DNA of 64,000 bases from Candidatus Zhuqueibacterota bacterium (GTDB lineage Bacteria > Zhuqueibacterota > Zhuqueibacteria > Oceanimicrobiales > Oceanimicrobiaceae): positions 66,791 through 130,790 of the forward strand of contig JAJDAD010000002.1 in NCBI GenBank assembly GCA_029262055.1, in the 5' to 3' direction. Under the pieces are notes generated by a model. That model did not search any database, was not told where the DNA came from, and was given only the letters and a program-made list of their open reading frames with translations. The stretch's first letter is position 1; the number at the start of each line of letters is the position of its first letter. Below are positions 5,967 to 39,613 of this stretch, piece after piece. The position numbers and the translations under genes are program-made.

Positions 5967-8900
5967 GTGGCTTCTGAAAAGAACAAAGCAATCAGACTTA
6001 TCGAGTACTTGGGCGAGTTGGCAAAACTTCGATCCAAAATAGTTCGAGATATCGGTGCCTATCAAAAAATCCTGTGGCTTCATGAAATCCCAAAAGAGCA
6101 GAAGTATTGCTACACAAGAGTATGGGGGATTGAAGATGACATAGATGAAGATATCTGGATTGAAATAAAAAAAGATCAGGAGCCCCAATTACCGGCTATT
6201 CCCGACATTTGCGAAAAATGGGTTAATCATGATACTCTCTTTGATGCAGATAGCGTCCCTGAATTGTCTGGAAAAATTATTGAACAGGTTGAAGAACTAG
6301 ACAACGAAAGCGGAGAAACGATAGTTCTCAACAGAACAGTTCAACTTATTGATAATCCGCAGATTCAAGCTGAATGGGAAGAATATCTCCATGAGAAATG
6401 GACACCGTGGAAAGAATTGCATGCTAGGTGGCAAAGTATCCATAAAGTCTATTCTATACTCTTCAATATCTATCAAGATCAACTTAAATTGGGGGAAGAA
6501 TACGAACTTGCCGTCGGAATAGGTCTTCTCGCTTGGAAGACTCCAGGTGGTCACTTGGTGAGACGGCACTTAATTACAGCAAAAGCCTCTATCAGTTTTG
6601 AAGCACATCTTGGAAAATTCACCGTTCGGCCATCTACCGATGGATCTCAACTTGATGTTGAACTTGATATGCTCGACATTGAGGAACAACCGCCAAACAT
6701 CAAGAGAATCGTCGACGACGGTCTTAAGTCTGCGAATGACAATCTATGGGACCGTTCATCGACTAATATCCTACTTAAGGCTGTTACTAACTCACTGGCC
6801 GAGAAAGGCGAAGGTGATTACTTCCCTGAAAAAATTGTACCGACTTCCAACAATTCACCGGAAAAACCCGTAGTCGAATACGCGCCAGCCCTTTTTCTTA
6901 GAAAACGTTCAATACGCGGTCTGGAAACAACTCTCGAAGAGATAAAGAAGCAAGTGGAGAAAGACTCAATTATTCCACATGAGTTTCTTGATCTATGTGA
7001 ATTGGACGAGATTGATCGTGGGTCTGGCGAGAATTTAGGTGATGAAAAAAGTCAGGCTATCCCAGAATCCGATGGAAGAATTTATTTCCCACTTCCATCA
7101 AATGACCACCAACGTAGAATTATCGATACCCTGAATAATAATAAAGGTGTACTTGTCCAAGGGCCACCCGGAACAGGCAAATCACATACAATCACGAACC
7201 TCATCTGCCATCTTCTTGCCACCGGCAAACGCGTTCTCATTACGGCAAAAACACCAAGGGCTTTGCAGGTTCTGGAGAATATGTTGCCAGAAGCCATCAA
7301 GCCACTTTGCATAAATCTCCTTGGGAGTGGAATTCTGGAGCGCACTTCCTTGGAAGCAAGCGTAAGAAACATCCTGAGCAGACAGGATGGATGGAATGTA
7401 CGAGACGTCTCACAAAGAATTGATAATCTTGAACAACAGATCCATCGACTTCAAAAAGATAAAGCGGACACAGATTATAAGCTAAGGGCGCTTCGGGAAC
7501 AGGAAACATTCACGCATAATGTTGCAGAAGGAGCCTATTCTGGTACAGCAGCAAAGATTGCGATGCAATTACAAAAAGAATCAGCCCAACATTCTTGGTT
7601 TTCAGACAAGATTCCTACTGATCAAGTCTTTCCTTTGTCGATTGAGGAGGTCGATATTCTATGCAGTGCGCTAATAACTCTAAGTGCGGAGCAAGAAAAG
7701 GAGCTTGGTCTTTTGGTGCCTGCAAGCGATGACCTACCATCAACGGATACTCTGCAAAAGCTACTCGCGACAGAAAAGAGCAGTTTAAGCAAACTTTCAG
7801 CCAGCAGATCATTATTAACTTCCCCTGAAGGCAAGGCTGTTCAGCAGTCTAACCCCAAAATCGTGGCAGAGTTGGTTGACAGTATCAATTCGCTTAAAGC
7901 AGCGGTCGAGAGCATCAGAAAACGTCCGATGCCTTGGATAAAAAAGGCAGTGTTTGATATGCTCTCAGATAATGACATGCCTTGGAAAGAACTGTTGCAG
8001 TTATCCAAGAGAGAGAGGTCCAAGAAGGATTTAAAGGCGCACGCTCTTGATATTGATGGCGTCTCCATAAGAATTCCGAAAAATATTGATCGAGATAAGC
8101 TCTACCATGATGTCAGATCACTTTATCAGCATTTTGACAAGGGTGGTAAAATAGGACGGGGGCCGTTCAAACCCAAGATTGTGCAAGAGAATTACTATAT
8201 AATCAAAAATATACAGGTAGATGGACGTGAGTGTTCATCTAAAACGACTCTTAGAAAACTAAGGAGTTACTTGTATGTAACAAAAACCCTCAATAACATT
8301 TGGGCACTCTGGTCCGGGAAGGCTGAAAAAGAGCAAGATTCGCTGGTTCTGCAGATCGCGGAGATAGACGAACTGCATGAAGCACTGGGGAACATTGTTG
8401 CCTTGTACAATTTAGTGGAGCTGGCCAAGGAAAATATCAGGAGGATTAACGGCTTAAGTACTCCCGCCTGGCATGATCATGACAGTGAATCGTTACACAA
8501 TTTGCTTGACATATGTCAAGCAGCGACCGCCAGATTCGACCTTTTGGAGGCCCGAGAGAAACTAAAAAAGATTGAAAATCATCTATCGTCAATCATCAAT
8601 CAAGAAAAAGTTCATCCGATAGGTCATCAAATTCATTATGCTTTCCAAAAACGTGACATTGAGTTGTACAGAAAACTGTGCAAGGAAACTGACACCCTTT
8701 GCGAAGCAAAAGAGATTGTCCAAAGAAAGAATGCCGTTTTACAAAAGCTGGCGACCACTGCTCCGACCATTGCTGAAACAATAATAAGTACACCAGACAA
8801 GAATCTTTGGGTGCAGCGGTTGCGGAACATGGAAAAAGCATGGGCTTGGGCCAGAGGAAAAGCATGGCTTGAAGACTATATGGAAGCTGACAATTTCGAC

Positions 8901-10943
8901 AGCCTTGAGCGTAAATCAAATAGACTTGATGAGGACATCCGTAAGTATCTTGCAGAGCTCGCCGGTGATAAGGCTTGGAAGTTTTGTTTCTCGCGGATGA
9001 AAGAATCACACCGCAGACATTTGATTGGCTGGGAGCAGGCAATGAAAAAACTTGGCAAAGGTACCGGTAAACATGCGCCAAGACATCGTCGGACAGCACA
9101 ACAACATTTACATGAATGCCGTGATGCTGTTCCTGCATGGGTTATGCCACTACACAGAGTATATGAGACTGTTCGGCCAGAGCCTAGTCTATTCGACGTA
9201 ATAATTGTCGATGAGGCCTCCCAGTGTGGCCCAGAGGCGTTACCACTGATGTACCTTGCCAAACGTATCCTTGTCGTTGGGGATGACAAACAGATAAGTC
9301 CAGATGCCGTCGGCATTAACCGAGAGCACATGCATCGTCTGATGAGAGAATATCTTTTTGACTTTAAGCATGATGATTTATTCGATGTCGAGAACAGTCT
9401 TTTTGATCATGGACTAAGACGTTTCAATAATAGGATATCTTTGAGAGAACATTTTCGCTGTATGCCTGAGATCATTCGTTTCAGTAACGACCTTTGCTAC
9501 CATACAGGGCCGTTGATACCGCTGCGGCGGTATCCCCCAAACCGGATAGAGCCCCTAAAGGCCATCCATGTATCTTCAGGTTATCGAGAAGGTAAGTTTA
9601 ATAGAGTCATCAATAGGCCAGAGGCCGAAACTTTGGTTGAGAGTGTCCTGGCTTGTTGTAGAGATGAACGTTACAAGAACAAAACCATGGGGGTAATAGT
9701 TCTTCAGGGTGAAGCCCAAGCCTATATTATTGAGAATATGCTGCTTGACAAACTTGGTGCCGAGGAGATGGAGAGACGCCGGCTTGTGTGCGGCCACGCT
9801 TATAGTTTCCAAGGCGACGAAAGAGACGTGATTTTTCTGAGTATGGTCGCAGCCCCAAACGAAAGGATTGGTACCTTGACGAAGGCCGCTGACCAGCGCA
9901 GATTCAATGTTGCGGCAAGTCGAGCTAAAGACCAGATGTGCCTTTTTCATTCTGTTACCCAAAATGACCTTAGCGAGTCTTGCCTCCGTCGAAGATTGCT
10001 GGAATACTTTTATGATCCAGTTAGTCAGATTACCAAAGCATTAGGTGCGAATGCTGAGGAGTTACGGGAAATGGCACATAGAGCTGACAGGAAAATCGAA
10101 AGTCCGCCCTCCCCGTTTGACAGTTGGTTCGAAGTTGATGTCGCACTGCAGATCGCCACTAAAGGATACCGAGTCATTCCGCAGTATCCTTTTGCAGGCA
10201 AGCGAATTGACATGGTCATCGAGGGAAGTCAAACGCAATTAGCTGTTGAGTGTGACGGTGACTTTTGGCATGGTCCCGAGCAATACGAGAAGGACATGGA
10301 GCGCCAGCGAATGCTTGAAAGATGTGGTTGGCAGTTTTATAGGGTTCGTGAGTGTGAATATAATATCGATTCTGAAAATGCTCTTGAACCATTGTGGCAA
10401 CAATTAAACAAGGTGGGTATTGCACCAATATCAGGAAGTCCTAAGGAGGGCACGAAGCCATTTGATGGCGACATTGATAATACGGAGGAATCTACAAGTT
10501 TTTTTGAGAGTACTGCGTCACGTTCTCCACATAGCGGCGATAGCGGTAGTACGGTAAAGGCCGTAAATAACAACTCGAAGGACGATGAGAAGATAAGTGC
10601 AATCAAGAAGCATGAAGCGTCATCTTTAGAATCTGTCCATCCGACCGACATTCAAAATGCCTTGACTATTCAATCTGCAATAATTCGAGACACCATCATC
10701 GCAATATTAGAAGAAAGTCCAAACCATTCATGCATAAAAGAGAAATTGACCACAAATATTCTTCAAAAATGGAATATCAAAACGAGGAGTAAGCCAAGAG
10801 AAAGATTTTCCCGCAGAGTCAATAGAGCTGTTTCTTATTTAGACAGAGAAGGCTATGTTGAAATTTATAAAAGTAAAAATGTCAGAGTGAGACTTAGTGG
10901 AAGGCCATATCCGCGTCAAATGAGATTAAAAGACGTTGATTAA
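5967..10943 (+). CDS. Large SF1 (Upf1/DNA2-like, AAA_11/AAA_12) helicase with a C-terminal DUF559/Vsr-like PD-(D/E)xK endonuclease domain and an uncharacterised approximately 390-aa N-terminal region; GTG start
   Basis: Walker A GPPGTGKSHTITNL...GKRVLITAKT, motif II IIVDEASQ...VVGDDKQISP, and motifs V/VI VCGHAYSFQGDERDVIFLSMV are present. The C-terminus WFEVDVALQIA...VIPQYPFAGKRIDMVIEG...LAVECDGDFWHGPEQYEKDMERQRMLERCGWQFYRV is DUF559/Vsr-like. The gene body is visibly AT-rich compared with its flanks. Confidence 0.8.
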   Translation: MASEKNKAIRLIEYLGELAKLRSKIVRDIGAYQKILWLHEIPKEQKYCYTRVWGIEDDIDEDIWIEIKKDQEPQLPAIPDICEKWVNHDTLFDADSVPELSGKIIEQVEELDNESGETIVLNRTVQLIDNPQIQAEWEEYLHEKWTPWKELHARWQSIHKVYSILFNIYQDQLKLGEEYELAVGIGLLAWKTPGGHLVRRHLITAKASISFEAHLGKFTVRPSTDGSQLDVELDMLDIEEQPPNIKRIVDDGLKSANDNLWDRSSTNILLKAVTNSLAEKGEGDYFPEKIVPTSNNSPEKPVVEYAPALFLRKRSIRGLETTLEEIKKQVEKDSIIPHEFLDLCELDEIDRGSGENLGDEKSQAIPESDGRIYFPLPSNDHQRRIIDTLNNNKGVLVQGPPGTGKSHTITNLICHLLATGKRVLITAKTPRALQVLENMLPEAIKPLCINLLGSGILERTSLEASVRNILSRQDGWNVRDVSQRIDNLEQQIHRLQKDKADTDYKLRALREQETFTHNVAEGAYSGTAAKIAMQLQKESAQHSWFSDKIPTDQVFPLSIEEVDILCSALITLSAEQEKELGLLVPASDDLPSTDTLQKLLATEKSSLSKLSASRSLLTSPEGKAVQQSNPKIVAELVDSINSLKAAVESIRKRPMPWIKKAVFDMLSDNDMPWKELLQLSKRERSKKDLKAHALDIDGVSIRIPKNIDRDKLYHDVRSLYQHFDKGGKIGRGPFKPKIVQENYYIIKNIQVDGRECSSKTTLRKLRSYLYVTKTLNNIWALWSGKAEKEQDSLVLQIAEIDELHEALGNIVALYNLVELAKENIRRINGLSTPAWHDHDSESLHNLLDICQAATARFDLLEAREKLKKIENHLSSIINQEKVHPIGHQIHYAFQKRDIELYRKLCKETDTLCEAKEIVQRKNAVLQKLATTAPTIAETIISTPDKNLWVQRLRNMEKAWAWARGKAWLEDYMEADNFDSLERKSNRLDEDIRKYLAELAGDKAWKFCFSRMKESHRRHLIGWEQAMKKLGKGTGKHAPRHRRTAQQHLHECRDAVPAWVMPLHRVYETVRPEPSLFDVIIVDEASQCGPEALPLMYLAKRILVVGDDKQISPDAVGINREHMHRLMREYLFDFKHDDLFDVENSLFDHGLRRFNNRISLREHFRCMPEIIRFSNDLCYHTGPLIPLRRYPPNRIEPLKAIHVSSGYREGKFNRVINRPEAETLVESVLACCRDERYKNKTMGVIVLQGEAQAYIIENMLLDKLGAEEMERRRLVCGHAYSFQGDERDVIFLSMVAAPNERIGTLTKAADQRRFNVAASRAKDQMCLFHSVTQNDLSESCLRRRLLEYFYDPVSQITKALGANAEELREMAHRADRKIESPPSPFDSWFEVDVALQIATKGYRVIPQYPFAGKRIDMVIEGSQTQLAVECDGDFWHGPEQYEKDMERQRMLERCGWQFYRVRECEYNIDSENALEPLWQQLNKVGIAPISGSPKEGTKPFDGDIDNTEESTSFFESTASRSPHSGDSGSTVKAVNNNSKDDEKISAIKKHEASSLESVHPTDIQNALTIQSAIIRDTIIAILEESPNHSCIKEKLTTNILQKWNIKTRSKPRERFSRRVNRAVSYLDREGYVEIYKSKNVRVRLSGRPYPRQMRLKDVD

Positions 10944-18978: not shown

Positions 18979-21900
18979 TTAGCTGAACAGCTCTTCGATA
19001 TCCCGCAAGGTTAGTTGTTTAAACAGGCCCGCACTGCTGGTGATAATGCTCGACACCAGCTCCTTCTTCTTCTCCTGCAAATGCAGGATTTTCTCTTCCA
19101 CAGTGCCCTTGCTGATCATCTTGTAGACAAAAACGTGCTTGTCCTGCCCGATGCGATGACTGCGATCGGTAGCCTGGGCCTCGACCGCCGGGTTCCACCA
19201 GGGATCATAGTGGATGACGTAATCGGCGGACGTCAGGTTTAAGCCCGTACCGCCGGCCTTCAGGCTGACGAGAAAGATCCTGCACGCCTCATCTTTTTGG
19301 AATCGCTCTACACATTCTTTTCGGTTGCGGGTACTGCCGTCAAGATATTCATACGGCGTGCCTTGCGCGTCCAGTTGTTTGCGCACAATGGTTAGCATCT
19401 TGACGAATTGTGAGAACACCAGGACTTTGTGCCCCTCGGCCAGCAATTCTTCGAGATACTGGTTCAACAAGTCAAACTTTTGCACCGGGCCCTTGAAGGA
19501 GTCCTCCACAAGGTGCGGGTGACAGGCCAGCAAGCGCAACTTGACGAGGCCTTCGAGGACGTTCATGCGAGATTTGTTTAAACCGGAATCAGCGATTTGA
19601 TTCAGAACCTGAGCCCGGTAGTAGTCTCGCCACTTGTTGTAAACCTTTTCATGCTGTGGCGCCATCTCCGCGTAAACGATGCTTTCAATTTTGGGCGGCA
19701 GCTCGGGTGCCACTTTTTCTTTCGTGCGGCGCAATAGAAACGGAAAAACCATTTTTTTGAGCAGTTGCGCGGCGGCTTCATCCTGTTCCGCTTCGATCGG
19801 TTTGGCGAATTCGTTCTTAAAATAACTCAAGCTGCCGAGCAGTCCCGGATTTAGAAACGAAAACAAGGACCAAAGCTCGATGGTGTTGTTTTCGATGGGT
19901 GTGCCGGTCAGTGCCAGCCGGTGCCGGGCCTGCAGGACTTTCACGGCCTTGGCGGTTTGCGACAGCGGGTTCTTTATGTTCTGAGATTCATCCAGAATCA
20001 CGTAATCAAACATAACATCCTTGAGGAAGAGGATGTCGCGACGCAAGGTGCCGTAACTGGTCAGCACGATGTCGTAGTCACTATAATTGATGCCGGTGCG
20101 GAGACGATCTGCGCCGGTTTGGTTTAAGACGCGCAAACCGGGTGCGAACCGTTCTATTTCGGCCTGCCAGTTGAAAACCACCGAGGTCGGTGTGATGATG
20201 AGGCTTGGCAAATCGATCTCGTTTTCAACTTGCCACTGCAGAATTGAGAGAGCCTGGACCGTCTTGCCCAGACCCATGTCGTCAGCCAGGCAACCCCCGA
20301 ACCGGTAGTTACGCAAAAAATGCAGCCAATGGTAGCCGGCTTTCTGGTAGTTCCGCAGGTCGGCGGAAAGATTTGCGGGCAGGTCATACTCCGCGATGCC
20401 GTCGAAATCTTTTAACTGTTCCAGCCGCTCTTCAAAGACTGTATCCATGTTTTTTTGGTGAGCAGCGGCAAACAGTTCATCAATCAGAGTTACATGAAAG
20501 CTGGAAAGACGCACCCCGTCCTGACGTTCTTCGCCAAGATTGATCACATGCCGAAAGCGGTCCAGCCATTCCCTCGGCATTTTGCTTACGCTGCCGTCTA
20601 CCAGTCGGACATACTTGCTATTTTTCTTCAGCGCCTTTTTGATTTCCGACAACGAGAGCATGACACCACCGACATCGATTTCCATTTGCAGGTCAAACCA
20701 GTCGATGTTAGATTTGGTGCTTACGCTTATCGAGGCGGAGGCTCTGTTTACTCTGAACCTGGATAAGCTCTCTTCACCGTAAACGGCAAATCCGTTCGAT
20801 ACGAGTTGCGGGATTTCGTCGATGAGCCATTCCAGGGTTTGATTGCTCCTGGTAGTAATGACTCCGGCCTTGGCGGTCTTGACACTGGTGCGCTGCAGGA
20901 GGGCGACCGCCTCGGCTTCACGCTTCTGGTCACGTTGTATTTTGATGAATGTGCTACCGTCTTCGTTACTGCTCCATACGGCCGGTCTTGTATCTCGCGC
21001 CAGAACCTCTACCGGGCCATATCCGAACCGGAGGTCTACTTTGATGCAATCGCCAAACTCTTCGAGGTAGAGGCGCTGTTCGGTGATCTCGCCGATGGTC
21101 TCGGTACCGATACCTTCGGGTACGCGAAAATGTTGCAGCAACTCAGATTGCGCCCCCAGAGAGTTTAGAAATGATGGCATGTCCTTGCGGGGAACCGTCA
21201 CCTTGTAGTTTTTTCTGAGGAAGGGAATCAGGCTTTCAGCATTGTGATCTCCGGCAATGCTGATGATGCTGCTTTCACGCAAAATCCAAACAGGATTGAC
21301 GGTCAGTAAGGTGAACGTGTGGTCGAGGATGTGCTCCGAGTCGTCGAGCAGCAGAAATGGCTGCAGGCGCAAAACGTCTCCTTCACCGAGCATCCGAAAT
21401 TCGATTCTTCCGCTGTTTTCCCCGACCTGGAGCCCGGTGCGTTTTTCCCCGTCCGACAAGTACAGGCGACTGTCTTGCAACATATCGAAAATGACGCCCG
21501 CATCCGCACCATCGACAAATCTGTATTGCACGGGGCGTGGGTCGTAGTAGGCGTTCTGTGAGCCGTTACGGTAAGACTTGTCCAGGTAACTTAGAACCAG
21601 ATTGTCGTGACGGCTGCGGCGCAGGTTGGGATTATTGAAGTCGGTGGTGGCGAGGCCGCGCGGGACTCCCATGCCTCCGTCTTTTTTAGCCAACCGCTTC
21701 TGCGGTTCTATACTCCAACCTTTTTGGCTGGTTCTAAGGACGAAGACCAGGTGCCAGAGACGGTCGTAGGCAGTGACATTTTCTTTTTCAGGTCTGATGC
21801 GCGACAGATAGTTTTGCCAACCTGATTTGATGTCCGCGTCTGCCACCAGGTCTATGCGGCGCCAGTCGATCGCCTCCAGGACTGTTGCTACGATGTGTTT

Positions 21901-22188
21901 GCAGATGCCGTTAAACGGGCAAGTGCACTCGGTATACTTGTAATCATTTTCAAGCCAAATCTCGACGTGGTAGGGGCTGGTTCCGCTTACTTCCGCCTCA
22001 ACAAACTCGGGGGTGATCACTTTGATTTGTACACGGCCTTCTGCGTGGTAGCTCTGGCCGCGCGCAAAAATATGGGGCGCAACAATGGCCCGAATGTCTT
22101 CAACTGCCAGGTTCATCTTGGCGCAAGTCTCCGGTGGTATTGGCAACAGGGCAAACCGGAATATACGACCGTCAATCCAATTGAGCAA
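18979..22188 (-). CDS. SWIM zinc-finger SNF2-family helicase (RapA/HepA-like)
   Basis: SWIM motif CTCPFNGICKHIVATVL. SNF2_N motifs LRNYQKAGYHWL...LADDMGLGKTVQAL and DESQNIKNP. Helicase_C motif RIFLVSLKAGGTGLNLTSADYVIHYDPWWNPAVEAQATDRSHRIGQ. The true start may be the internal MNLAVED at 22116. Confidence 0.85.
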   Translation of the reverse strand: MLNWIDGRIFRFALLPIPPETCAKMNLAVEDIRAIVAPHIFARGQSYHAEGRVQIKVITPEFVEAEVSGTSPYHVEIWLENDYKYTECTCPFNGICKHIVATVLEAIDWRRIDLVADADIKSGWQNYLSRIRPEKENVTAYDRLWHLVFVLRTSQKGWSIEPQKRLAKKDGGMGVPRGLATTDFNNPNLRRSRHDNLVLSYLDKSYRNGSQNAYYDPRPVQYRFVDGADAGVIFDMLQDSRLYLSDGEKRTGLQVGENSGRIEFRMLGEGDVLRLQPFLLLDDSEHILDHTFTLLTVNPVWILRESSIISIAGDHNAESLIPFLRKNYKVTVPRKDMPSFLNSLGAQSELLQHFRVPEGIGTETIGEITEQRLYLEEFGDCIKVDLRFGYGPVEVLARDTRPAVWSSNEDGSTFIKIQRDQKREAEAVALLQRTSVKTAKAGVITTRSNQTLEWLIDEIPQLVSNGFAVYGEESLSRFRVNRASASISVSTKSNIDWFDLQMEIDVGGVMLSLSEIKKALKKNSKYVRLVDGSVSKMPREWLDRFRHVINLGEERQDGVRLSSFHVTLIDELFAAAHQKNMDTVFEERLEQLKDFDGIAEYDLPANLSADLRNYQKAGYHWLHFLRNYRFGGCLADDMGLGKTVQALSILQWQVENEIDLPSLIITPTSVVFNWQAEIERFAPGLRVLNQTGADRLRTGINYSDYDIVLTSYGTLRRDILFLKDVMFDYVILDESQNIKNPLSQTAKAVKVLQARHRLALTGTPIENNTIELWSLFSFLNPGLLGSLSYFKNEFAKPIEAEQDEAAAQLLKKMVFPFLLRRTKEKVAPELPPKIESIVYAEMAPQHEKVYNKWRDYYRAQVLNQIADSGLNKSRMNVLEGLVKLRLLACHPHLVEDSFKGPVQKFDLLNQYLEELLAEGHKVLVFSQFVKMLTIVRKQLDAQGTPYEYLDGSTRNRKECVERFQKDEACRIFLVSLKAGGTGLNLTSADYVIHYDPWWNPAVEAQATDRSHRIGQDKHVFVYKMISKGTVEEKILHLQEKKKELVSSIITSSAGLFKQLTLRDIEELFS

Positions 22189-23912: not shown

Positions 23913-24007
23913 ATACCAAAAACAATTTCCTCAGAAGGAGGAAGCCAAGTGAAAAATATTAGTAACTTAATTACAATTACAGTGTTAGCCTATTCCTTTG
24001 CACGCTG

Positions 24008-27000
24008 TCAAAACAGCGAGATTTGTGTCTTGTCCGGGTCTTTCTTTTTCTTGATGGCTTTCGCCTGTTCTGCTTTTGTGAGGCTGCGTTCGATGTTGTT
24101 TAGGAATTTCGATCTTGGGGGAGTGAGCGTTTTCCCGAACCGCAGCCGCTTGTTTGCGTGTGTCAGGACAAGCTGCTCCCGGGCGCGGGTCATGCCGACG
24201 TAAAGTAACCTCCGCTCCTCATCTTCGTCAGAGGTAGCTTTCTCACTTTCAAACGGCAGGATACCCTGTTCGCAGCCCACAATAAAGACAACGCCAAACT
24301 CCATTCCTTTGGCCGCGTGCAGAGTCATCAGGGAAACCCGGTCCGCCCTGGGATCGTAATCATCCGTTTCTGAGGTAATGGCGCAGGCGCGCAGAAATCC
24401 TGCCAGGTCTGCACCGAACGGCTTCGCGGCTAAAATAAACCGGCTGAGCGTGCGCGCGGGTTTATCAGCGGCGAAATAGTCGTCCGGATAAAATCCGGCG
24501 ATTGTCCTCACAATGATTTCCGATACCGACAGCGGGACGGTGTTCGTTCTCAAGGCCTTAAGCCGGGTCGAAAACGTCGCGATCGCCGCACGTTGACGCG
24601 TATTCAGGCCTGGGATTTTGGCGACGGTTTGCATGGCCTCCCAGATTCCGGTTGCTTCATGGTGCGCGAAATTCAGCAGTTTTTGCAAAGCCATAGGGCC
24701 GATCCCCAGCCGCGTCTCGGCCAGACGTTGTGCAAGAAGTGTATCGTTGACTTCGCCCACGAGTAACCAAAGCTGCTGTAGCAGTCCTTTGAAGGGTTGG
24801 TTCTGGTAACTCGATTGCCGCCCGATTACCTGATAAGGTATGCCCGAGCGGTCAAATGCTTCCTCCAGCAGCGTGCTTTGAGAATTCAAACGGTAGAGGA
24901 CCGCAAAGTCACGAAATGTGGCCGACGGCAGTGTTTGTCCGCTAACCCGCTCCGAGTCGATGGAAAAATAACTGGTTCCTCCAACCATTTTTTCGATTTG
25001 GTGAACCACATATTCGGCTTCGGCTTTGCCGGTCGGCGCGCTATAGATACTGATTTTTTTTTCGGTGACTATTTGCGACCAGTTGGAATATTCATCGTCT
25101 CGCGCCGTCCGGTTCAGAACCTGGGCGGAGGCCGCCACAATGTTGTGGGCTGAGCGGTAGTTGCGTCCCAACCTGATCATACGTGTGCCCGGAAAGTCCC
25201 TGGCAAAATCCAGAAAATATTGCGGCGTCGCACCCCTGAATCCGTAAATCGCCTGGTCAGGATCGCCGATGGCGCAGAGGTTGGTGTGGTCTCCGCAGAG
25301 AAGTTTCAGGAATCGATATTGTGCGAAATTGACATCCTGGTATTCGTCTACCGATATCCACTTGAAACGTTGCCGGCAAGCCGTCCGAACGCCGGCATGC
25401 TCTTGCAGCAAGCACACGGTCCTGCTAATGAGGTCTTCGAAATCAAGTGCCTGACGCGCACGTAACTCATCTTCATAGCCTTGAAAGTACCCGGAAAAAT
25501 GAGCGGGGGTAGCGAACGTGTTTGATTTCCTCGCCGTCTCCGGACTCAAAAGTGAGCGCTTTGCGGCAGAGATGGCTGCGCTGAGCTCCTGAAGCTCCAC
25601 TTTCGGGATATCTTTGACCAGCGTCCGTAGCAAGCCTAACTTGTCAGCCTCATCGCAAATGGAAAAGATAGGCGGAACATCGATTAGATGGCCGAACTCG
25701 GCAAGAATCCTGATTCCGAGGCTATGAAATGTACAAATGGTTAGCGCTGCGATTTGCTGAGGCTGCAGGGACCGCGTCAGCCGGGCTTGCATTTCTTCTG
25801 CGGCTTTGTTGGTAAATGTGACGGCCAGTATTTCATCCGGGCGCGCGTGGCCCGCGGCGATCAGGCCGACGATTCTATTAGTCAGGGTCCGGGTTTTGCC
25901 GGTGCCGGGACCTGCCACGATCAGGAGTGGACCTGCGGTATGCTTGACCGCCTGCTCCTGTTCGTGGTTATGCATCTCTCCGCCATCGCCTTGCGCGGTT
26001 AACCGCGGTGAATCGGGCATTACTGTTTTAGCTTTCGGAACAGGACGGACGGGAGCCGGTGTGTCGGTTTCGTCCGACACGGCGGCGCTGGCCTGTTTCT
26101 CCATATCTTCCTGTGCCGCCCGCTTTACATTGTCCATGAAGAAACTCAATTGGGTCGTAAACTCTTCTCTCTCAGCCTTTTCAAAGAGCTGGATTTTACC
26201 GAACTCGCCGTCGTATCCCGCGGCTATTTTGATTTCGCCGGCTCGGATGCGTTTGATGCCTTCGGCTACCATGTCACCGGCAAACCTGCTGATGTCGGCG
26301 ATAGCGGCTTCCTGCAAAATATGCAGCTCGGATCCAAGTTTGGACAAAAGGTAGTCAAAACTCTGCCTGACCCGCTTTGAATTAACGCCTACCCCATGAA
26401 TCTCGGATAAGACCTCGGGCAGCGGCACCAGGCTTTGGTAGGGATGCGGAAGTGACGGTATTTGGCCGGGTTCTCTGTCGGCCAGCGCCTCGACGCGGTG
26501 CATAACCCCGACTGTGACTCGCTTGCCACAGTCAGAACAGATGCCGTCGTGCGCAATTGTGGTGCGCGGGTCCCAGCATACCCGGCACTTCCGGTGGCCA
26601 TCGTAATGGTACTTGCCCTCCTCCGGGAAAAATTCGATGGTCCCCAGAAACTTGTCGCGGTCGCCGCTCTTCAAAGCAGAAAAAATCGCGTCGTACGACA
26701 AGTCCGTGTCAAACAGATTCGCCTCCCTCGCTAGTTTCTGTGGTGAATGTGCGTCGGAATTTGACACCAGCGTGTAGCGGTCGAGGATGGAGAGACGTTC
26801 ATTCATTGGCGGGTCCGACGACAGGCCGGTTTCAAGGGCAAAAATCTGGTCGGTTAAGTCGCCGAAGCATTCTTCCACCGAATCAAATCCGGACATGGAA
26901 CCGAGCATTGCGAACCAGGGCGTCCAGATGTGGGCAGGAATCAGATAGCCCTGCGGGTCAGTTTCCAAAACGATTTCGAGCAAATCGCGCGAATCCAGGC

Positions 27001-27421
27001 CGAGAATTGGCCGGCCATCCGACCGGATGTTGCCGATTTTGTCCAGCGTGGACTGGAATTTCTCTAAAGCATCAAACGACGGCATGAAGACGACATTGTG
27101 AATTTTGCGAACCTTGTCGTGGCGTTTGTAAATGTTGCTGATTTCGCCGGCCAGCATGAAACGCACCATGCCGGCGCACGCTTTCGGGACTTCCGGCTGG
27201 GTGACTTTGCTGTACTCCGGCTTTAAACGGAAAAGCCCATCCTCTGCCGGTTCCAGCTTTTCTTGCATCTCCTGCAGCCAGCCCGGATGCGCGATGTCGC
27301 CGGTCCCGACCACATTGACGCCCTTCAGTTGCGCCCATTTGTGCAGATGTTCCAGATTGAGGCTTTTGCTGGTGGCGCGCGAGTAGTAGGAATGGAGGTG
27401 AATGTCTGCTACGATTTTCAT
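24008..27421 (-). CDS. Fusion protein: N-terminal EndoQ-like PHP-domain nuclease with a Zn ribbon, plus a C-terminal UvrD/PcrA-family SF1 helicase
   Basis: N-terminus MKIVADIHLHSYYSRATS...GVNVVGTGDIAHPGW is PHP/EndoQ-like, followed by CRVCWDP...CSDCGK. A Glu-rich linker leads to UvrD motifs LLIVAGPGTGKTRTLTNRI...LAVTFTNKAAEEM and later helicase motifs (TLHAAKGMEFGVVFIVG, VGMTRARE). Confidence 0.8.
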   Translation of the reverse strand: MKIVADIHLHSYYSRATSKSLNLEHLHKWAQLKGVNVVGTGDIAHPGWLQEMQEKLEPAEDGLFRLKPEYSKVTQPEVPKACAGMVRFMLAGEISNIYKRHDKVRKIHNVVFMPSFDALEKFQSTLDKIGNIRSDGRPILGLDSRDLLEIVLETDPQGYLIPAHIWTPWFAMLGSMSGFDSVEECFGDLTDQIFALETGLSSDPPMNERLSILDRYTLVSNSDAHSPQKLAREANLFDTDLSYDAIFSALKSGDRDKFLGTIEFFPEEGKYHYDGHRKCRVCWDPRTTIAHDGICSDCGKRVTVGVMHRVEALADREPGQIPSLPHPYQSLVPLPEVLSEIHGVGVNSKRVRQSFDYLLSKLGSELHILQEAAIADISRFAGDMVAEGIKRIRAGEIKIAAGYDGEFGKIQLFEKAEREEFTTQLSFFMDNVKRAAQEDMEKQASAAVSDETDTPAPVRPVPKAKTVMPDSPRLTAQGDGGEMHNHEQEQAVKHTAGPLLIVAGPGTGKTRTLTNRIVGLIAAGHARPDEILAVTFTNKAAEEMQARLTRSLQPQQIAALTICTFHSLGIRILAEFGHLIDVPPIFSICDEADKLGLLRTLVKDIPKVELQELSAAISAAKRSLLSPETARKSNTFATPAHFSGYFQGYEDELRARQALDFEDLISRTVCLLQEHAGVRTACRQRFKWISVDEYQDVNFAQYRFLKLLCGDHTNLCAIGDPDQAIYGFRGATPQYFLDFARDFPGTRMIRLGRNYRSAHNIVAASAQVLNRTARDDEYSNWSQIVTEKKISIYSAPTGKAEAEYVVHQIEKMVGGTSYFSIDSERVSGQTLPSATFRDFAVLYRLNSQSTLLEEAFDRSGIPYQVIGRQSSYQNQPFKGLLQQLWLLVGEVNDTLLAQRLAETRLGIGPMALQKLLNFAHHEATGIWEAMQTVAKIPGLNTRQRAAIATFSTRLKALRTNTVPLSVSEIIVRTIAGFYPDDYFAADKPARTLSRFILAAKPFGADLAGFLRACAITSETDDYDPRADRVSLMTLHAAKGMEFGVVFIVGCEQGILPFESEKATSDEDEERRLLYVGMTRAREQLVLTHANKRLRFGKTLTPPRSKFLNNIERSLTKAEQAKAIKKKKDPDKTQISLF

Positions 27422-27564
27422 TTAATTGAATGTCCTGATCAAAACGGAAGGCGGTCATTTATATCGAAAACTGAGAATTCGAGACTCCATTTTCAAGATA
27501 AAAGAAATAGTGACTAACATTTGGCATTTGCATATTTACGTTCTAAACAATTGTTTAGATGTAA

Positions 27565-35315: not shown

Positions 35316-36557
35316 ATGAATCAAGATACCCCCATCAAATATTCTGAAGACCTCAGAGAACTAATTGCCAGAATGCCAAAAACCGACCTGCACGTCCATT
35401 TGGATGGCAGCGTTCGCCTGCCGACTCTGATCGAAATTGCGCAGAAGGAGAATATCGATCTGCCCAGCTATACGGTCGAGGGCCTGAACGAACTCGTCTT
35501 CAAAGATGACTACGAAAACCTCGAGGAGTATCTGAAGACTTTTGGTTATTCTTGTGCCGTCATGCAAAAGCCGGAATATTTGGAGCGCATCGCTTACGAA
35601 ATGGCGCAGGACAATCAAAGCGAAGGTGTGCGCTACATGGAAGTCCGCTTTGCGCCGCAACTACACATCAACCAGATTATGGACATGAAGACCGTCATCA
35701 AGCATGTCGATGATGGCCTGGCGCGTGCCCAGCAGGAGTTCAACAACCGCGCGGAAGTCGTGTCCGGCAAGGAGCCGCCCTTCAATTACGGCATCATCAC
35801 ATCGGCCCTGCGCTCGTTTGGCCCGTACTCGGACTACTACGCCAAGTTCATGGACGTGCACGCTTACTCTGATACCAAGACCCTGTTCGCCCTCGGCTCC
35901 CTTGAGTTGGCGCAGGGAGCGGTCAGGGTTCGCGATGAGTTGGGTTTACCCATCGTCGCTTTTGACCTGGCAGGGGCGGAGAAAGGCAACCCGGCCAAGG
36001 ATCACTGGCAGGCGTTTCAGTTTGCGCATGAGAATTTTATGGCTAAGACCGTACACGCCGGCGAGGCCTACGGGCCACCTTCGATTTTTCAGGCCATCAC
36101 CGAGCTGCACGCGGACCGCATCGGACACGGTTACTACCTGTTCGATACCACCAAAGTTGATGACAAGAAAATCGCCGACAAGAAAAAATATGTAGAAGAC
36201 CTGGCCATGTACATCGCTGAGCATCGCGTGACCATCGAAGTCAACCTGACCAGCAATTTACAAACCAATCCCGCTCTCACCAGCCTCAAAGATCATTCCT
36301 TTAAAGAGATGGTCAAACATGATTTGAGCACCTCCATTTGTACCGACAATCGCACCGTCAGCAAGACCAGCGTCACCAACGAGATTATGCTCGCGCTGGC
36401 TAATTTCGAGCTGACGCCGAGGCGGTTGAAAAATATCATCGTTTACGGCTTCAAGCGATCTTTTTTCCCGGATAGCTACTCGCGCAAACGGGAGTACGTG
36501 CGGCGCTGTATCGATTTTTACGAAGAAACGGTGAAGGGGACTGCGCTCGAGGCGTAA
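35316..36557 (+). CDS. Adenosine/AMP deaminase-family protein
   Basis: N-terminal metal-binding signature DLHVHLDGSVR. The length of 413 aa fits the PF00962 family. The stop codon lies 20 bp upstream of the NACHT-DGR target gene. Confidence 0.75.
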   Translation: MNQDTPIKYSEDLRELIARMPKTDLHVHLDGSVRLPTLIEIAQKENIDLPSYTVEGLNELVFKDDYENLEEYLKTFGYSCAVMQKPEYLERIAYEMAQDNQSEGVRYMEVRFAPQLHINQIMDMKTVIKHVDDGLARAQQEFNNRAEVVSGKEPPFNYGIITSALRSFGPYSDYYAKFMDVHAYSDTKTLFALGSLELAQGAVRVRDELGLPIVAFDLAGAEKGNPAKDHWQAFQFAHENFMAKTVHAGEAYGPPSIFQAITELHADRIGHGYYLFDTTKVDDKKIADKKKYVEDLAMYIAEHRVTIEVNLTSNLQTNPALTSLKDHSFKEMVKHDLSTSICTDNRTVSKTSVTNEIMLALANFELTPRRLKNIIVYGFKRSFFPDSYSRKREYVRRCIDFYEETVKGTALEA

Positions 36558-36577: not shown

Positions 36578-39500
36578 ATGGGCAAGCTCTGCATAGGACT
36601 CTTTATCTTTGCGATTGTGTCAGTTCCTCTTTCCACGCTGCTTGCGAGGGAGGGAGGTCAGCAAGCCGACTCCTCTAAGCAACATCGTGCAAGCACAAGC
36701 GTGTCTGCGGATACTTCCTCGAAATCGCCCAAACCACTACCGGCAACTCTCCCTGAAAAATCAAAACAGAACTCAAGCGATGAAACGGACATGAATCAAA
36801 TGATGCCCTGGTTGATTGCCTTGGGTGCATTGGTGTTAGCAGTGTACCAGTACTATCGAAGAAGAACTGATACCAGAGACATGCTCCGTGATGAAATGAG
36901 GGTCAAAGACGAGTTCGAGACAAGTCAGGCGAAAGAGCGAGAGCTGACTGCGGAAGAGAGCTACCGTGCAGCCTTACACAAGGAACTCGGCAGCATAAAA
37001 ATTCTCGGTTCCCCGGACATTGACAGCCTGCCGGTAAGTCTGTTAGACTCGTTTGTCTCGCTTCGCATTTCCGAGACCTGGCGCAATGAATCGCGCTTCG
37101 ATCCCAGGAAGATGGAACGGCAACATGAGGATCGGGACCTTTCTCCGGAGGAGATCCTGCAGCGTGCTTTTCGGCAAGACCGGATGCTGGTGCTCATAGG
37201 CGAACCCGGCTCGGGCAAGACCACCCTCATGAAATTTTATGCCATGACCTGCCTGGAAGGTGGCGGCGGAAGCGCCCTCGGATTCAAGCAAGCTGTGCTG
37301 CCGCTGTACTTACCGTTGCGCGACCTCAAGTTTAAAGAAAAAGAGGATGGGATAGAATCTCTGCCGAATAACCTGGCGGCCAGGGCGGAAAAGCACGTTC
37401 TCGACATCGAGGCAAAGGAATTTTATGACTGGCTGCACAACCGGGAAACACTGGTTCTGCTGGATGGGTTGGACGAAATCAGCGATCTGAAAAAACGCAA
37501 GCAGGTCTGCAAGTGGATAGACAACACTTGCACCGGCCTTACGAAGGCCCGCTTTGTCGTGACCTCACGCTGGACCGGCTATCGCAAGGCAGAGGGCATT
37601 GAGCTGGAAACCGACCACCTGCGGGCGGACGTGCGTGACTTTTCTCGGGACCAGCAAGAGGAGTTTTTACGAAAATGGTTCCGGGCGGTATATCTGCGCG
37701 AGTATAAAGAGAGCGGAAAACCACCAGTCGATTGGCAGGAACGCCAACGTAAAAAGGCCGATCTGCGTGTCGACAAAATTCTTGGCTTCCTGAAAAGGGC
37801 CAGCAACCACAGCCTGCGCGAGCTTGGCGCCACACCAATGCTACTGCAGATCATGGCTATCCTTTGGAAAGAGCGCGACATTTTACCGGAAAGCCGTGCC
37901 TCTCTGTATGCCGCCGCACTAAACTACCTCCTGGTTTTTCGGGACAGGCGCCGAGATCTGGACCCGGTTCTGCCGGTAGACAAAGCTCGGCGCGTACTGT
38001 TGCCGACGGCCCTCTGGATGCAGGCGGAGGTTGGCAAAGATGAGGTGCCGAAAAATGATATGTACGACCAAATGCAACCGAAACTGAACAGCATGGAAGA
38101 GCAGGCTGACGCCGCCGTCTTCTGCCAAAACCTGGTTGACCGGGCTGGGCTGCTGGCAGAGTACGGCGAGGCCGATTATATCTTCCGGCACAAGTCATTT
38201 CGCGAGTATTTAGCCGGCGTGCAGCTCACCAAGGAGGAAAACAAGATAGAGTGGCTGCAGAAATTGATTGACCACTTTGGTGACGACTGGTGGGAAGAAC
38301 CTTTGCGGTTTTTTATAAATGAAGGCGACGACAAGCTGTTTGACGCTTTTATGGACTTATTTTTTACTTCCGAAATGAGTAAAGAGCTTGACCAAAAGCA
38401 GCAGGATTTGTTGCAGACCCTGGTGCGGGAGGCACCACAACGGGAACTAACCGCCCTTGCTCAGTGGCTGAATAAAAACGAAACCAATACCCAGCAGAGA
38501 AGATATATTCTGGAATGCCTTAAGACAATCGGAACTGCTGCAGCACTGGAGGAAGTCGAGAAGTACCTGGACAAGATGTTTACGAGACATGAAAAGCGTC
38601 TAAATAGACCGAGTGTGCAAGAGACTCATCAAGAGGCAAGCAGGCTGGATCCTAACTTCAAGTATGCCACTGAGATTCTTGCTGAATCAGCCAGGCGCAC
38701 GCCGGCGGTTGCCGCCAAAGGCCGGGCTCAAGTCGAGTCATCAGCAACTCTTGCTGATGACCTGTTTAGGAAATTGCCAGCTTCTTTCGTAAATGACCAC
38801 GAACAAAGCGCAGAGTATATCCTCATTCCGCCCGGCGAGTTCAAATTCTCCGTTTCAAAAAACATAGAGCCTGTACCTAATATTTACTTCGCTAAGTATC
38901 CTGTGACCAACAAGCGTTACCGCCGCTTTATCGCATACCTGAGCAACCAGCTTGACGAGCAAAGTGGCCGCCTGCCGACAGACCTGTTTTCTCAAAAGCT
39001 ATCTGAGTTTGCTGCGGGCATCAAGGACTTCACGGATTATCTGGGAACTGACCGAAATGGGTGGGCGAATAAACTACGGTCTGGGTACGATGACAACAAA
39101 CGTTTCAATCACGACGATCAACCCGTTGTCGCTGTAACCTGGTTCGCGGCGCGCGCCTACTGTTTCTGGCTGTCATGCCTGCAAGAGACTGAACTTGACC
39201 ATAAGCTGGAAGATGCAAACAAGCTGGCGAATAACTGTCGTTTGCCAACCGAGTTGGAGTGGGAGTGGGCGGCGGCCGGCCGCGAACGGGATGGCTCTTT
39301 GCGCGACTACCCGTGGCCCAAAGAAGAAGGTTCGCCAACGGACAAGCTGGCGAATTATGGTGGCACTGTTGGCGCCACTACGCCTGTAGGCCGCTACCTC
39401 GAGGGTGCAACTCCGGAAGGGTTGCTGGACATGGCAGGCAACGTTCTTGAGTGGTCGGAAAGCTGGCGCGATGAAGGCAGGAGCCGCCGGGCGCTTCGTG

Positions 39501-39613
39501 GGGGTTCGTGGGGCATTGCTACAGACTTCCTGCGGTGCTCGGCGCGCAACAGCCTCTATCCCGGCGACAGGGACGGCAATGTTGGGTTTCGAGTTGTTCG
39601 GCCCCAGTCCTAA
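36578..39613 (+). CDS. DGR target protein: membrane-anchored NACHT (STAND) NTPase with a C-terminal FGE-sulfatase/C-type-lectin-fold domain that carries the variable region
   Basis: Two N-terminal hydrophobic segments (MGKLCIGLFIFAIVSVPLSTLLA; MMPWLIALGALVLAVYQYY). NACHT Walker A LVLIGEPGSGKTTLMKF and Walker B LVLLDGLDEI. The C-terminus YPVTNKRYRRFIAY...VTWFAARAYCFW...LEWEWAAAG...LRGGSWGIATDFLRCSARNSLYPGDRDGNVGFRVV is FGE-sulfatase-like with an RGGSW-type DGR VR motif. Confidence 0.85.
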   Translation: MGKLCIGLFIFAIVSVPLSTLLAREGGQQADSSKQHRASTSVSADTSSKSPKPLPATLPEKSKQNSSDETDMNQMMPWLIALGALVLAVYQYYRRRTDTRDMLRDEMRVKDEFETSQAKERELTAEESYRAALHKELGSIKILGSPDIDSLPVSLLDSFVSLRISETWRNESRFDPRKMERQHEDRDLSPEEILQRAFRQDRMLVLIGEPGSGKTTLMKFYAMTCLEGGGGSALGFKQAVLPLYLPLRDLKFKEKEDGIESLPNNLAARAEKHVLDIEAKEFYDWLHNRETLVLLDGLDEISDLKKRKQVCKWIDNTCTGLTKARFVVTSRWTGYRKAEGIELETDHLRADVRDFSRDQQEEFLRKWFRAVYLREYKESGKPPVDWQERQRKKADLRVDKILGFLKRASNHSLRELGATPMLLQIMAILWKERDILPESRASLYAAALNYLLVFRDRRRDLDPVLPVDKARRVLLPTALWMQAEVGKDEVPKNDMYDQMQPKLNSMEEQADAAVFCQNLVDRAGLLAEYGEADYIFRHKSFREYLAGVQLTKEENKIEWLQKLIDHFGDDWWEEPLRFFINEGDDKLFDAFMDLFFTSEMSKELDQKQQDLLQTLVREAPQRELTALAQWLNKNETNTQQRRYILECLKTIGTAAALEEVEKYLDKMFTRHEKRLNRPSVQETHQEASRLDPNFKYATEILAESARRTPAVAAKGRAQVESSATLADDLFRKLPASFVNDHEQSAEYILIPPGEFKFSVSKNIEPVPNIYFAKYPVTNKRYRRFIAYLSNQLDEQSGRLPTDLFSQKLSEFAAGIKDFTDYLGTDRNGWANKLRSGYDDNKRFNHDDQPVVAVTWFAARAYCFWLSCLQETELDHKLEDANKLANNCRLPTELEWEWAAAGRERDGSLRDYPWPKEEGSPTDKLANYGGTVGATTPVGRYLEGATPEGLLDMAGNVLEWSESWRDEGRSRRALRGGSWGIATDFLRCSARNSLYPGDRDGNVGFRVVRPQS
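39487..39606 (+). repeat. DGR variable region (VR), 120 bp, the 3' end of the NACHT-FGE gene
   Basis: Identical to the TR at 40076-40195 except for about 16 positions. Every difference corresponds to an adenine in the TR. Confidence 0.9.

Follow-up and report, generated by a model that had tools for sequence, protein, structure and literature searches.

Endonuclease Q (EndoQ) incises DNA immediately 5' of deoxyuridine, deoxyinosine, deoxyxanthosine, and apurinic/apyrimidinic (AP) sites, leaving a 3'-OH and a 5'-P (PMC4357722). For the archaeal enzyme of Thermococcus kodakarensis (TkoEndoQ), a C-terminal PCNA-interacting protein (PIP) box is required for PCNA binding (KD 55 nM) and for the stimulation of cleavage, and Shiraishi et al. 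(2016) pointed out that bacterial EndoQ homologs, too, end in sequences of a clamp-motif consensus (PMC4858679). Bacterial EndoQ is represented by stand-alone proteins (Bacillus pumilus/B. subtilis; "endonuclease Q family protein"), and how alternative excision repair proceeds once the endonuclease has cut is acknowledged to be an unsettled matter (PMC8438529). Here, we describe a gene from a Candidatus Zhuqueibacterota bacterium, located at positions 24008..27421 (- strand) of a 64,000-nucleotide (nt) stretch of contig JAJDAD010000002.1 (hereafter the window), the product of which carries an EndoQ-like nuclease, a linker, and a superfamily 1A (SF1A) helicase on a single chain of 1137 amino acids (aa). 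From its sequence and its structural model, we consider it on balance probable that this protein is a single-chain, sliding-clamp-tethered "nick-and-unwind" repair enzyme acting on uracil, hypoxanthine, and abasic sites.

Site-specific nicking followed by SF1A unwinding is familiar from MutL/MutH-UvrD in mismatch repair, from UvrC-UvrD in nucleotide excision repair (NER), and from RepD-PcrA in rolling-circle replication; SF1A helicases translocate 3'->5', for which the nick of a partner nickase can be the starting point (as for MutH/MutL-UvrD and RepD-PcrA), and MutS and MutL likewise dock on the β-clamp. The resemblance of these systems to the fusion is one of analogy only, as they consist of separate, transiently interacting proteins, whereas the activities considered here lie on one chain or in adjacent genes. 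In AddA/RecB/AdnB, a UvrD-like SF1A motor and a nuclease do share one chain, as in the fusion, and weaker matches to these proteins were seen. However, their nuclease is a C-terminal PD-(D/E)xK domain acting at DNA ends in double-strand-break resection, whereas that of the fusion is an N-terminal PHP/EndoQ domain, predicted to be a lesion-specific nickase, with no partner subunit. Membership in the AddA/RecB group was rejected, as the partial motor-domain matches fell far under the cutoffs and the C-terminus is a short Lys-rich tail.

The fusion gene is a single unbroken reading frame, from an ATG start through 1137 codons to a stop, within which the coordinates of all sub-features were checked by direct translation; the strings quoted in a preliminary description of this DNA (DIHLHSYYSRATS, VVGTGDIAHPGW, CRVCWDP...CSDCGK, and GPGTGKTRTLTNRI) were all found in its translation. 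Both termini of the protein match those of 89 aligned full-length fusion homologs; this is the family alignment to which "invariant" refers throughout. Since the identical protein is present not only in a public protein collection but also on an independently assembled 3.8-kb Logan contig, a frameshift peculiar to the assembly of the window is excluded. Beyond the query itself, a full-length search listed 119 homologs of 1081-1213 aa, 50-58% identical and all with PF27218 plus UvrD domains, from sources that include KSB1, Caldilineaceae, Anaerolineae, Ignavibacteria, Calditrichota, and KSB3. The preliminary description had proposed a single-polypeptide nuclease-helicase fusion and had named a frameshift joining two genes as the artefact to be checked for; the single reading frame, the independent contig, the like architecture of the listed homologs, and the spread over at least 600 species detailed below show the fusion to be genuine. 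That its parts are an EndoQ-type module and a PcrA/UvrD-type SF1A helicase module is, to our minds, close to certain.

The EndoQ-like module occupies residues 1-416 (26174..27421, - strand) and has the same layout of PHP catalytic, Zn-binding, and C-terminal helical domains as the Pyrococcus furiosus (Pfu) and T. kodakarensis enzymes (5zb8, 7k30-7k33; TIGR00375; PF27218). In a search of all PDB sequences, residues 3-416 aligned to residues 3-386 of the 400 in PfuEndoQ (5zb8; E 3e-51), with 7k30/7k31 equivalent, and endonuclease Q was the sole match, the next one being noise (E 0.9); over the 380 columns of the residue map taken from this alignment, identity to PfuEndoQ is 33.4%. The NCBIfam model TIGR00375 covers residues 5-410 from positions 2 to 374 of its 374 (E 9e-51). 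In an AlphaFold2 (AF2) model of the fusion protein (mean predicted local distance difference test [pLDDT] score 84, predicted template-modelling score 0.61), the module superposes on 5zb8 with a template-modelling (TM) score of 0.84-0.85 and a root-mean-square deviation of 3.2 Å by Foldseek. No PolX or HisPPase PHP protein was present among the 50 Foldseek matches listed or in the PDB sequence search, and an assignment to either of these PHP types was rejected, as sequence matched EndoQ only and structure matched PfuEndoQ. A sub-threshold PHP_C match, all that the local Pfam copy returned for the N-terminus, was likewise set aside as evidence against a PHP/EndoQ fold; that copy predates PF27218 (MJ0043_C), the newer family that covers the domain and is precomputed for the fusion protein and all its relatives.

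The catalytic and lesion-pocket residues of EndoQ are in place. The metal/catalytic set of Pfu (H8, H10, E76, H84, H139, D193, and H195) is matched by H8, H10, E93, H108, H164, D223, and H225 in the fusion, all identical and invariant, with the D223-A-H225 element (Pfu D193/H195) encoded at 26747..26755 (- strand). The lesion-pocket residues H164, G199, and S201 are identical to Pfu H139, G169, and S171 and equally invariant; in PfuEndoQ, this pocket excludes thymine and adenine, and roles have been assigned to E76, H84, and H139 (PMC8307549). The positions of the Pfu Zn ligands C249, C252, C268, and C271 are taken by H276, C279, C295, and C298, again all invariant, in the motif H276-x2-C279 ... 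C295-x2-C298 (26528..26596, - strand). The preliminary claim that the first approximately 430 aa are EndoQ-like, as opposed to PolX- or histidinol-phosphatase-like, is thus upheld by end-to-end alignment and by retention of the catalytic and pocket residues. Its "Zn ribbon" fared less evenly: the domain exists, but the quoted CRVC string misplaces the ligands, C282 within it not being conserved across the family. Covalent attachment of an approximately 650-aa helicase aside, the fusion differs from PfuEndoQ in insertions of 17 and 6 residues. The 17-residue insertion contains Cys82 (nt 27176-27178), which, with Cys185 (nt 26867-26869), is invariant among the fusions and has no counterpart Cys in PfuEndoQ; the two might provide an additional metal or redox site, or be joined in a disulfide.

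Residues 485-1128 (24038..25969, - strand) form a PcrA/UvrD-type SF1A helicase core, supported by Pfam (UvrD-helicase, UvrD_C, AAA_19, and UvrD_C_2), NCBIfam, PDB sequences, Foldseek, and the family alignment. The top PDB sequence match is PcrA (1pjr; E 2e-110), followed by Deinococcus UvrD, Mycobacterium tuberculosis UvrD1, and Rep. The model of this part matches DNA-bound 4c2t, 4c30, 2is1, and 3pjr, as well as 1uaa_A, with TM scores of 0.80-0.88 and the 1A/1B/2A/2B fold. Walker A reads GPGTGKT (K509) at residues 504-510 (25892..25912, - strand), and the remaining motifs, i.e., Q488, TFTNKAA (Ia), DEYQD at 692-696 (II), GDPDQAIY at 719-726 (III), NYRS at 754-757 (IV), TLHAAKGMEF at 1033-1042 (V), and YVGMTRA at 1074-1080 (VI), are likewise all found and do not vary among the aligned homologs. 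A complete UvrD-type helicase, from Walker A through motif VI, had been described at the outset, and this is what we find. All motifs, the four-subdomain fold, and a separation-pin-like hairpin are therefore common to the fusion and to PcrA/UvrD/Rep (1pjr, 3pjr, 2is4, 4c2t, 1uaa); the hairpin in question, at residues 1090-1106 (NKRLRFGKTLTPPRSKF), resembles what we take to be the separation pin in the sequence of Escherichia coli UvrD.

Nonetheless, the helicase module is not an ortholog of PcrA, UvrD, or Rep. Its NCBIfam scores lie far under the respective equivalog cutoffs (496 vs 911 for PcrA, 461 vs 951 for Rep, and 378 vs 1144 for UvrD). Moreover, the match to the PcrA profile ends at position 649 of 725, from which we conclude that the C-terminal domain of PcrA/UvrD is missing; in its place is a Lys-rich tail followed by a clamp-binding-like motif, and at the opposite end of the chain is the nuclease.

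Two such motifs are present in the fusion, a feature that, as read from the sequence, appears to be first pointed out in the present analysis. The first, which we term CBM1 (QLSFF, residues 424-428; 26138..26152, - strand), falls right after the EndoQ module, while the second, CBM2 (QISLF, residues 1133-1137; 24011..24025, - strand), lies at the extreme C-terminus after the Lys-rich tail. Both fit the β-clamp-binding consensus QL(S/D)LF, or Q-phi-x-[L/M]-[F/L] (PMC11139829). When the pattern Q-[LIVMF]-x-[LIVMF]-[FLWY] was scanned at each alignment position of the 89 fusions, 77 sequences had it at residue 424 and 85 at residue 1133, with at most 8 occurrences at any other position; both motifs are thus position-specific, and the family consensus C-terminus is QLxLF. 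Among 69 genome-encoded fusions, 58 had a strict clamp motif within their last 8 residues, vs 0 of 995 unrelated neighbouring open reading frames (ORFs). Stand-alone-length homologs carry a terminal clamp motif in 44 of 58 cases, and stand-alone and split EndoQ-like proteins stop at the position of CBM1 with a motif of like kind. Given the archaeal PIP box and the clamp motifs of bacterial EndoQ homologs, CBM1 would be the retained clamp motif of EndoQ itself, with the clamp-docking motif directly following the C-terminal domain in both archaeal enzyme and fusion (PIP box vs bacterial β-clamp type). CBM2, by contrast, would be the helicase's own putative clamp motif.

Between the two modules lies a variable linker (residues 429-484; 25970..26137, - strand) for which the family has no consensus and of which residues 448-481 are predicted to be disordered (pLDDT < 50 in the AF2 model). 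The preliminary description had called this linker acidic; with 10 D/E vs 7 K/R it is only mildly so, and the segment is mainly rich in P/A/S/T.

The architecture is widespread. A scan covering one genome per species showed at least 600 species genomes to encode a relative, every one of the 600 stretches found doing so, and the best 80 of these loci fall in Chloroflexota, KSB1, Bacteroidota, Desulfobacterota, Planctomycetota, Spirochaetota, Gemmatimonadota, Myxococcota, Actinomycetota, and Bacillota. Among the carriers in culture are Desulfonema magnum, Geobacter argillaceus, Neomoorella stamsii, Propionispora, Micromonospora halophytica, Planosporangium, and Dactylosporangium. In 69 of the best 80 loci, the protein is encoded by one ORF of 1032-1236 aa. 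When a library of 50%-identity representatives was searched with the EndoQ-like module alone, 3,830 clusters were matched (1,069 at E <= 1e-30), and, among the best 150, proteins of at least 1000 aa made up 128 and stand-alone proteins of approximately 430 aa made up none. The fusion is therefore the dominant bacterial form of the clade to which this EndoQ-like module belongs, a clade separate from that of the unfused bacterial EndoQ proteins. A search for the same domain fusion elsewhere, as had been suggested beforehand, was thus amply rewarded across many phyla, and the fusion can be called unusual relative to characterised enzymes only; in the databases, it is the fused form that dominates in bacteria, under names such as "UvrD-helicase domain-containing protein", "DNA 3'-5' helicase", and "TIGR00375 family".

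A shorter architecture, with a truncated EndoQ plus half a helicase (approximately 680-690 aa), was entertained and rejected. A search with the N-terminal 421 aa had given no protein longer than 734 aa among the matches listed, with the query's own protein absent there, whereas the full-length search gave the 1081-1213-aa fusions, and the C-termini of the short forms proved to be frameshift garbage. Many such Chloroflexota proteins (e.g., P0041, P0022, and P0031) are encoded on long contigs and end in Arg/Ala/Gly-rich nonsense; far from being a separate architecture, these are frameshift truncations, due either to pseudogenes or to errors in the assembly of high-GC genomes. A comparable case is a Caldilineaceae locus (L083), in which the fusion gene at 6001-8856 was called in three pieces.

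Where the two modules are not fused, their genes remain together. For Omnitrophota homologs of stand-alone length (approximately 430 aa), a UvrD-type helicase gene follows on the same strand. Two Omnitrophota loci (L081/L082) encode a 431-aa EndoQ-like protein, then an unrelated 176-aa ORF, then a 524-aa helicase; a third (L029) encodes a split pair of 430 and 507 aa, and in a Nitrospirae locus (L022) the halves, of 423 and 650 aa and also on one strand, are separated by nine bases. Each half of a split locus terminates in a motif of its own (EQLTLF and QQINLF in L082, DQLTLF and FQMTLF in L029, GQGTLF and PQMGLF in L022). That the modules are fused in most lineages and encoded side by side in the others is a classical sign of two activities working together. 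The intervening 176-aa ORF of L081/L082 (7307..7837) has a hydrophobic N-terminus and is present in two independent assemblies.

By sequence and by model, the fusion thus combines the parts for the proposed nick-and-unwind enzyme: an intact EndoQ-type nuclease module, an intact PcrA/UvrD-type SF1A helicase module, a flexible tether, and two clamp-binding-like motifs. A role in the repair of deaminated bases or AP sites has, in our estimation, a good likelihood. The protein would dock on the β-clamp via CBM1 and/or CBM2, parallel to archaeal EndoQ on PCNA via its C-terminal PIP box. The EndoQ module would then flip out a uracil, hypoxanthine, xanthine, or abasic residue and cut the phosphodiester immediately 5' of the lesion, yielding a 3'-OH and a lesion-bearing 5'-phosphate. 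At this self-made nick, the tethered 3'->5' helicase would engage the intact strand and peel off the lesion-bearing 5' strand, much as PcrA is loaded at the RepD nick or UvrD at the MutH/MutL nick. A clamp-bound polymerase could extend the 3'-OH, the displaced strand could be removed by a flap nuclease or 5' exonuclease, and ligase would seal the product. In this manner, the fusion would supply in cis the strand displacement needed after EndoQ incision. For the specific hand-off from nick to helicase, we put the likelihood slightly short of even, and it is with similar tentativeness that we suggest, for bacteria at large, the main EndoQ form to be a widespread, β-clamp-loaded polypeptide in which a lesion nickase hands its own nick to a tethered SF1A helicase.

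Should this prove true, EndoQ-type direct-incision repair would be no archaeal peculiarity, a self-contained bacterial alternative-excision (nucleotide-incision) pathway would be defined, and helicase-driven strand displacement would be the missing step following 5' incision; both the fusion and its split-gene forms point to a helicase as the step after incision. In reviews, the occurrence of EndoQ is still given as limited to "a few bacteria", whereas at least 600 bacterial species genomes encode the EndoQ-like module, mostly in fused form. Both modules belong to known families, and what appears to be new is their covalent union with two putative clamp-docking motifs in a widespread architecture; no paper describing an EndoQ-helicase fusion was found in the open-access full-text literature searched, subscription journals lying outside its scope. 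The cultured carriers make the system tractable, and EndoQ already serves as a reagent for the detection of deamination, an application in which a variant coupled to a helicase might be useful.

Several points weigh against the nick-and-unwind proposal as set out above. The TIGR00375 score of the EndoQ-like module (173.4 bits) is below the curated cutoff of 326.6, which marks the module as a distinct EndoQ-like subfamily and not a TIGR00375 equivalog, and the substrate range of such a subfamily could differ from that of PfuEndoQ. The predicted Zn site is an HCCC variant of the CCCC site of PfuEndoQ. Clamp binding is read from short linear motifs, and the segment containing CBM1 is modelled as a helix by AF2. 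The order of events, the identity of the displaced strand, and the downstream partners are drawn wholly by analogy. Finally, no repair gene was detected as a conserved neighbour in the best 80 loci.

One alternative is that the protein is a general-purpose PcrA/UvrD, serving in NER, mismatch repair, replication-transcription conflicts, or rolling-circle replication, with an accessory EndoQ domain and no coupling of the two activities at a nick. Consistent with this, the top NCBIfam matches of the helicase are the PcrA, Rep, and UvrD equivalogs, which cover the motor core over almost its entire length, and the linker is long and disordered, such that the modules can act independently. Yet the scores against each of these equivalogs are the sub-cutoff values given above, the PcrA/UvrD C-terminal domain is replaced by the Lys-rich tail and its clamp motif, the split genes stay adjacent with a clamp motif in both products, and stand-alone proteins of approximately 430 aa are missing from the best 150 representative clusters. 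We therefore regard this alternative as unlikely.

A second alternative, itself a variant of the nick-and-unwind model, is replication-coupled surveillance, in which the clamp-bound enzyme would travel with or behind the replisome and remove misincorporated dUMP or dIMP. Two clamp motifs per chain would suit such a role, as would the ability of EndoQ to bind PCNA and to act on both single-stranded DNA and duplex, for which a possible link to replication complexes has been seen in review; the available data, however, fit the nick-and-unwind model alike, and we judge this variant improbable. In this variant, the task of the helicase would be to remodel the nascent strand or the fork instead of serving patch repair.

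The surroundings of the gene bear on a third alternative, anti-phage defence, in which the EndoQ module would attack phage DNA containing uracil or non-canonical bases and the helicase would feed or process the substrate, in the manner of Gabija (GajA/GajB) or of further defence systems with a UvrD component. The helicase half does score well against the PADLOC models for GajB (E ~1e-88, reflecting a shared UvrD-like helicase homology) and for the DRT "RTasHel" protein, a suggested antiviral role of Bacillus EndoQ has been noted in review (PMC8307549), and other defence-like genes, for an SF1B helicase-REase and a NACHT protein, are present several kb away in the window. However, these PADLOC matches amount to generic UvrD homology, with no GajA/OLD-type or reverse-transcriptase partner adjacent, and membership in Gabija was rejected for want of a GajA (OLD/TOPRIM nuclease) neighbour in the window and of a recurrent partner in the 80 loci. 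All-against-all clustering of the ORFs at these loci revealed no conserved operon or partner, with no neighbour family in more than 10 of the 80 (the maximum being a histidine kinase). Those neighbours that do recur are lineage specific, namely histidine kinase, ABC ATPase, a ThyA-like protein, gyrB, dnaN, and RdgC. Among 125 immediate neighbours, no Pfam family occurred more than 4 times, most families were metabolic or housekeeping (including dnaN and gyrB in Desulfobacterales), and no defence-island context was found, the only PADLOC matches being sporadic and generic.

Mobile elements gave a similar picture: the EndoQ-like module had no match in 50,697 phage records and a single match in 72,556 plasmid records, to a stand-alone EndoQ that is encoded by a 733-kb Brevibacillus replicon and shares 29% identity across 74% of the module. 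Together, the lack of a conserved partner, the absence from phages, the lone plasmid match, and the neighbour profile argue for a self-sufficient chromosomal maintenance gene and not a defence module, and the conserved clamp-binding motifs in turn point to the replication/repair hub; defence is hence an explanation to which we accord only a slim probability. The preliminary description had left the choice between an excision or processing machine and a defence-type nuclease-helicase; the former is the one we favour, on account of the clamp-binding motifs and the split-gene forms, while the latter was left without support.

In the window, the fusion gene looks monocistronic. An intergenic region of 352 nt lies upstream, and approximately 65 nt past the stop is a terminator-like hairpin with a T-run (23927..23943, - strand), a tentative feature from a consensus scan, as promoter and terminator scans of the region returned site numbers no higher than in shuffled sequence. 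A scan of the window against Rfam gave no match. The AT-rich upstream region contains a perfect 18-bp palindrome, TCTAAACAATTGTTTAGA, at 27542..27559, approximately 120 nt upstream of the ATG. No second copy of its 14-bp core occurs in the window, also not with 2 mismatches allowed, and the palindrome was the sole feature to come out of a search for upstream regulatory motifs; the palindrome could be an operator, with the nearest homologs of the protein being only ~58% identical.

Neighbouring genes in the window encode a DUF2846 protein, proteins with no Pfam match, a tetratricopeptide-repeat protein, a PabB/aminotransferase, a molybdopterin oxidoreductase, and a bacterial SNF2 helicase. The latter (1069 aa; 18979..22188, - strand; SNF2_assoc, SNF2-rel_dom, and Helicase_C domains) is encoded on the strand of the fusion gene, two genes farther downstream. 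By eye, a CxC...CxH segment in its N-terminal part is SWIM-like, and its gene does not recur as a neighbour at the 80 loci. Elsewhere, in the Desulfobacterota loci L017, L018, L042, L047, and relatives, the fusion is found near dnaN and gyrB (i.e., origin-proximal) and near RdgC-like and ThyA-like genes.

Farther from the fusion gene, a 1658-aa ORF at 5967..10943 (+ strand) encodes an SF1B Upf1-like helicase (AAA_11 at residues 378-572, AAA_12 at 1142-1326) with a C-terminal restriction-endonuclease-like domain (REase_MTES_1575, residues 1388-1480). This second helicase-nuclease fusion, unrelated to the first, sits in a low-GC stretch (0.43-0.45 vs ~0.53 for the window) and may be a defence gene gained by horizontal transfer. 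On the other side, an adenosine-deaminase-family gene (PF00962; 413 aa; 35316..36557, + strand) is followed after 20 nt by a gene for a NACHT NTPase with a C-terminal FGE-sulfatase domain (1011 aa; 36578..39613, + strand), the product of which resembles proteins of the STAND/NLR type. Genes of the NACHT and FGE-sulfatase kinds are also located a few kb from the frameshifted EndoQ-helicase gene of the Caldilineaceae locus, through either coincidence or linkage.

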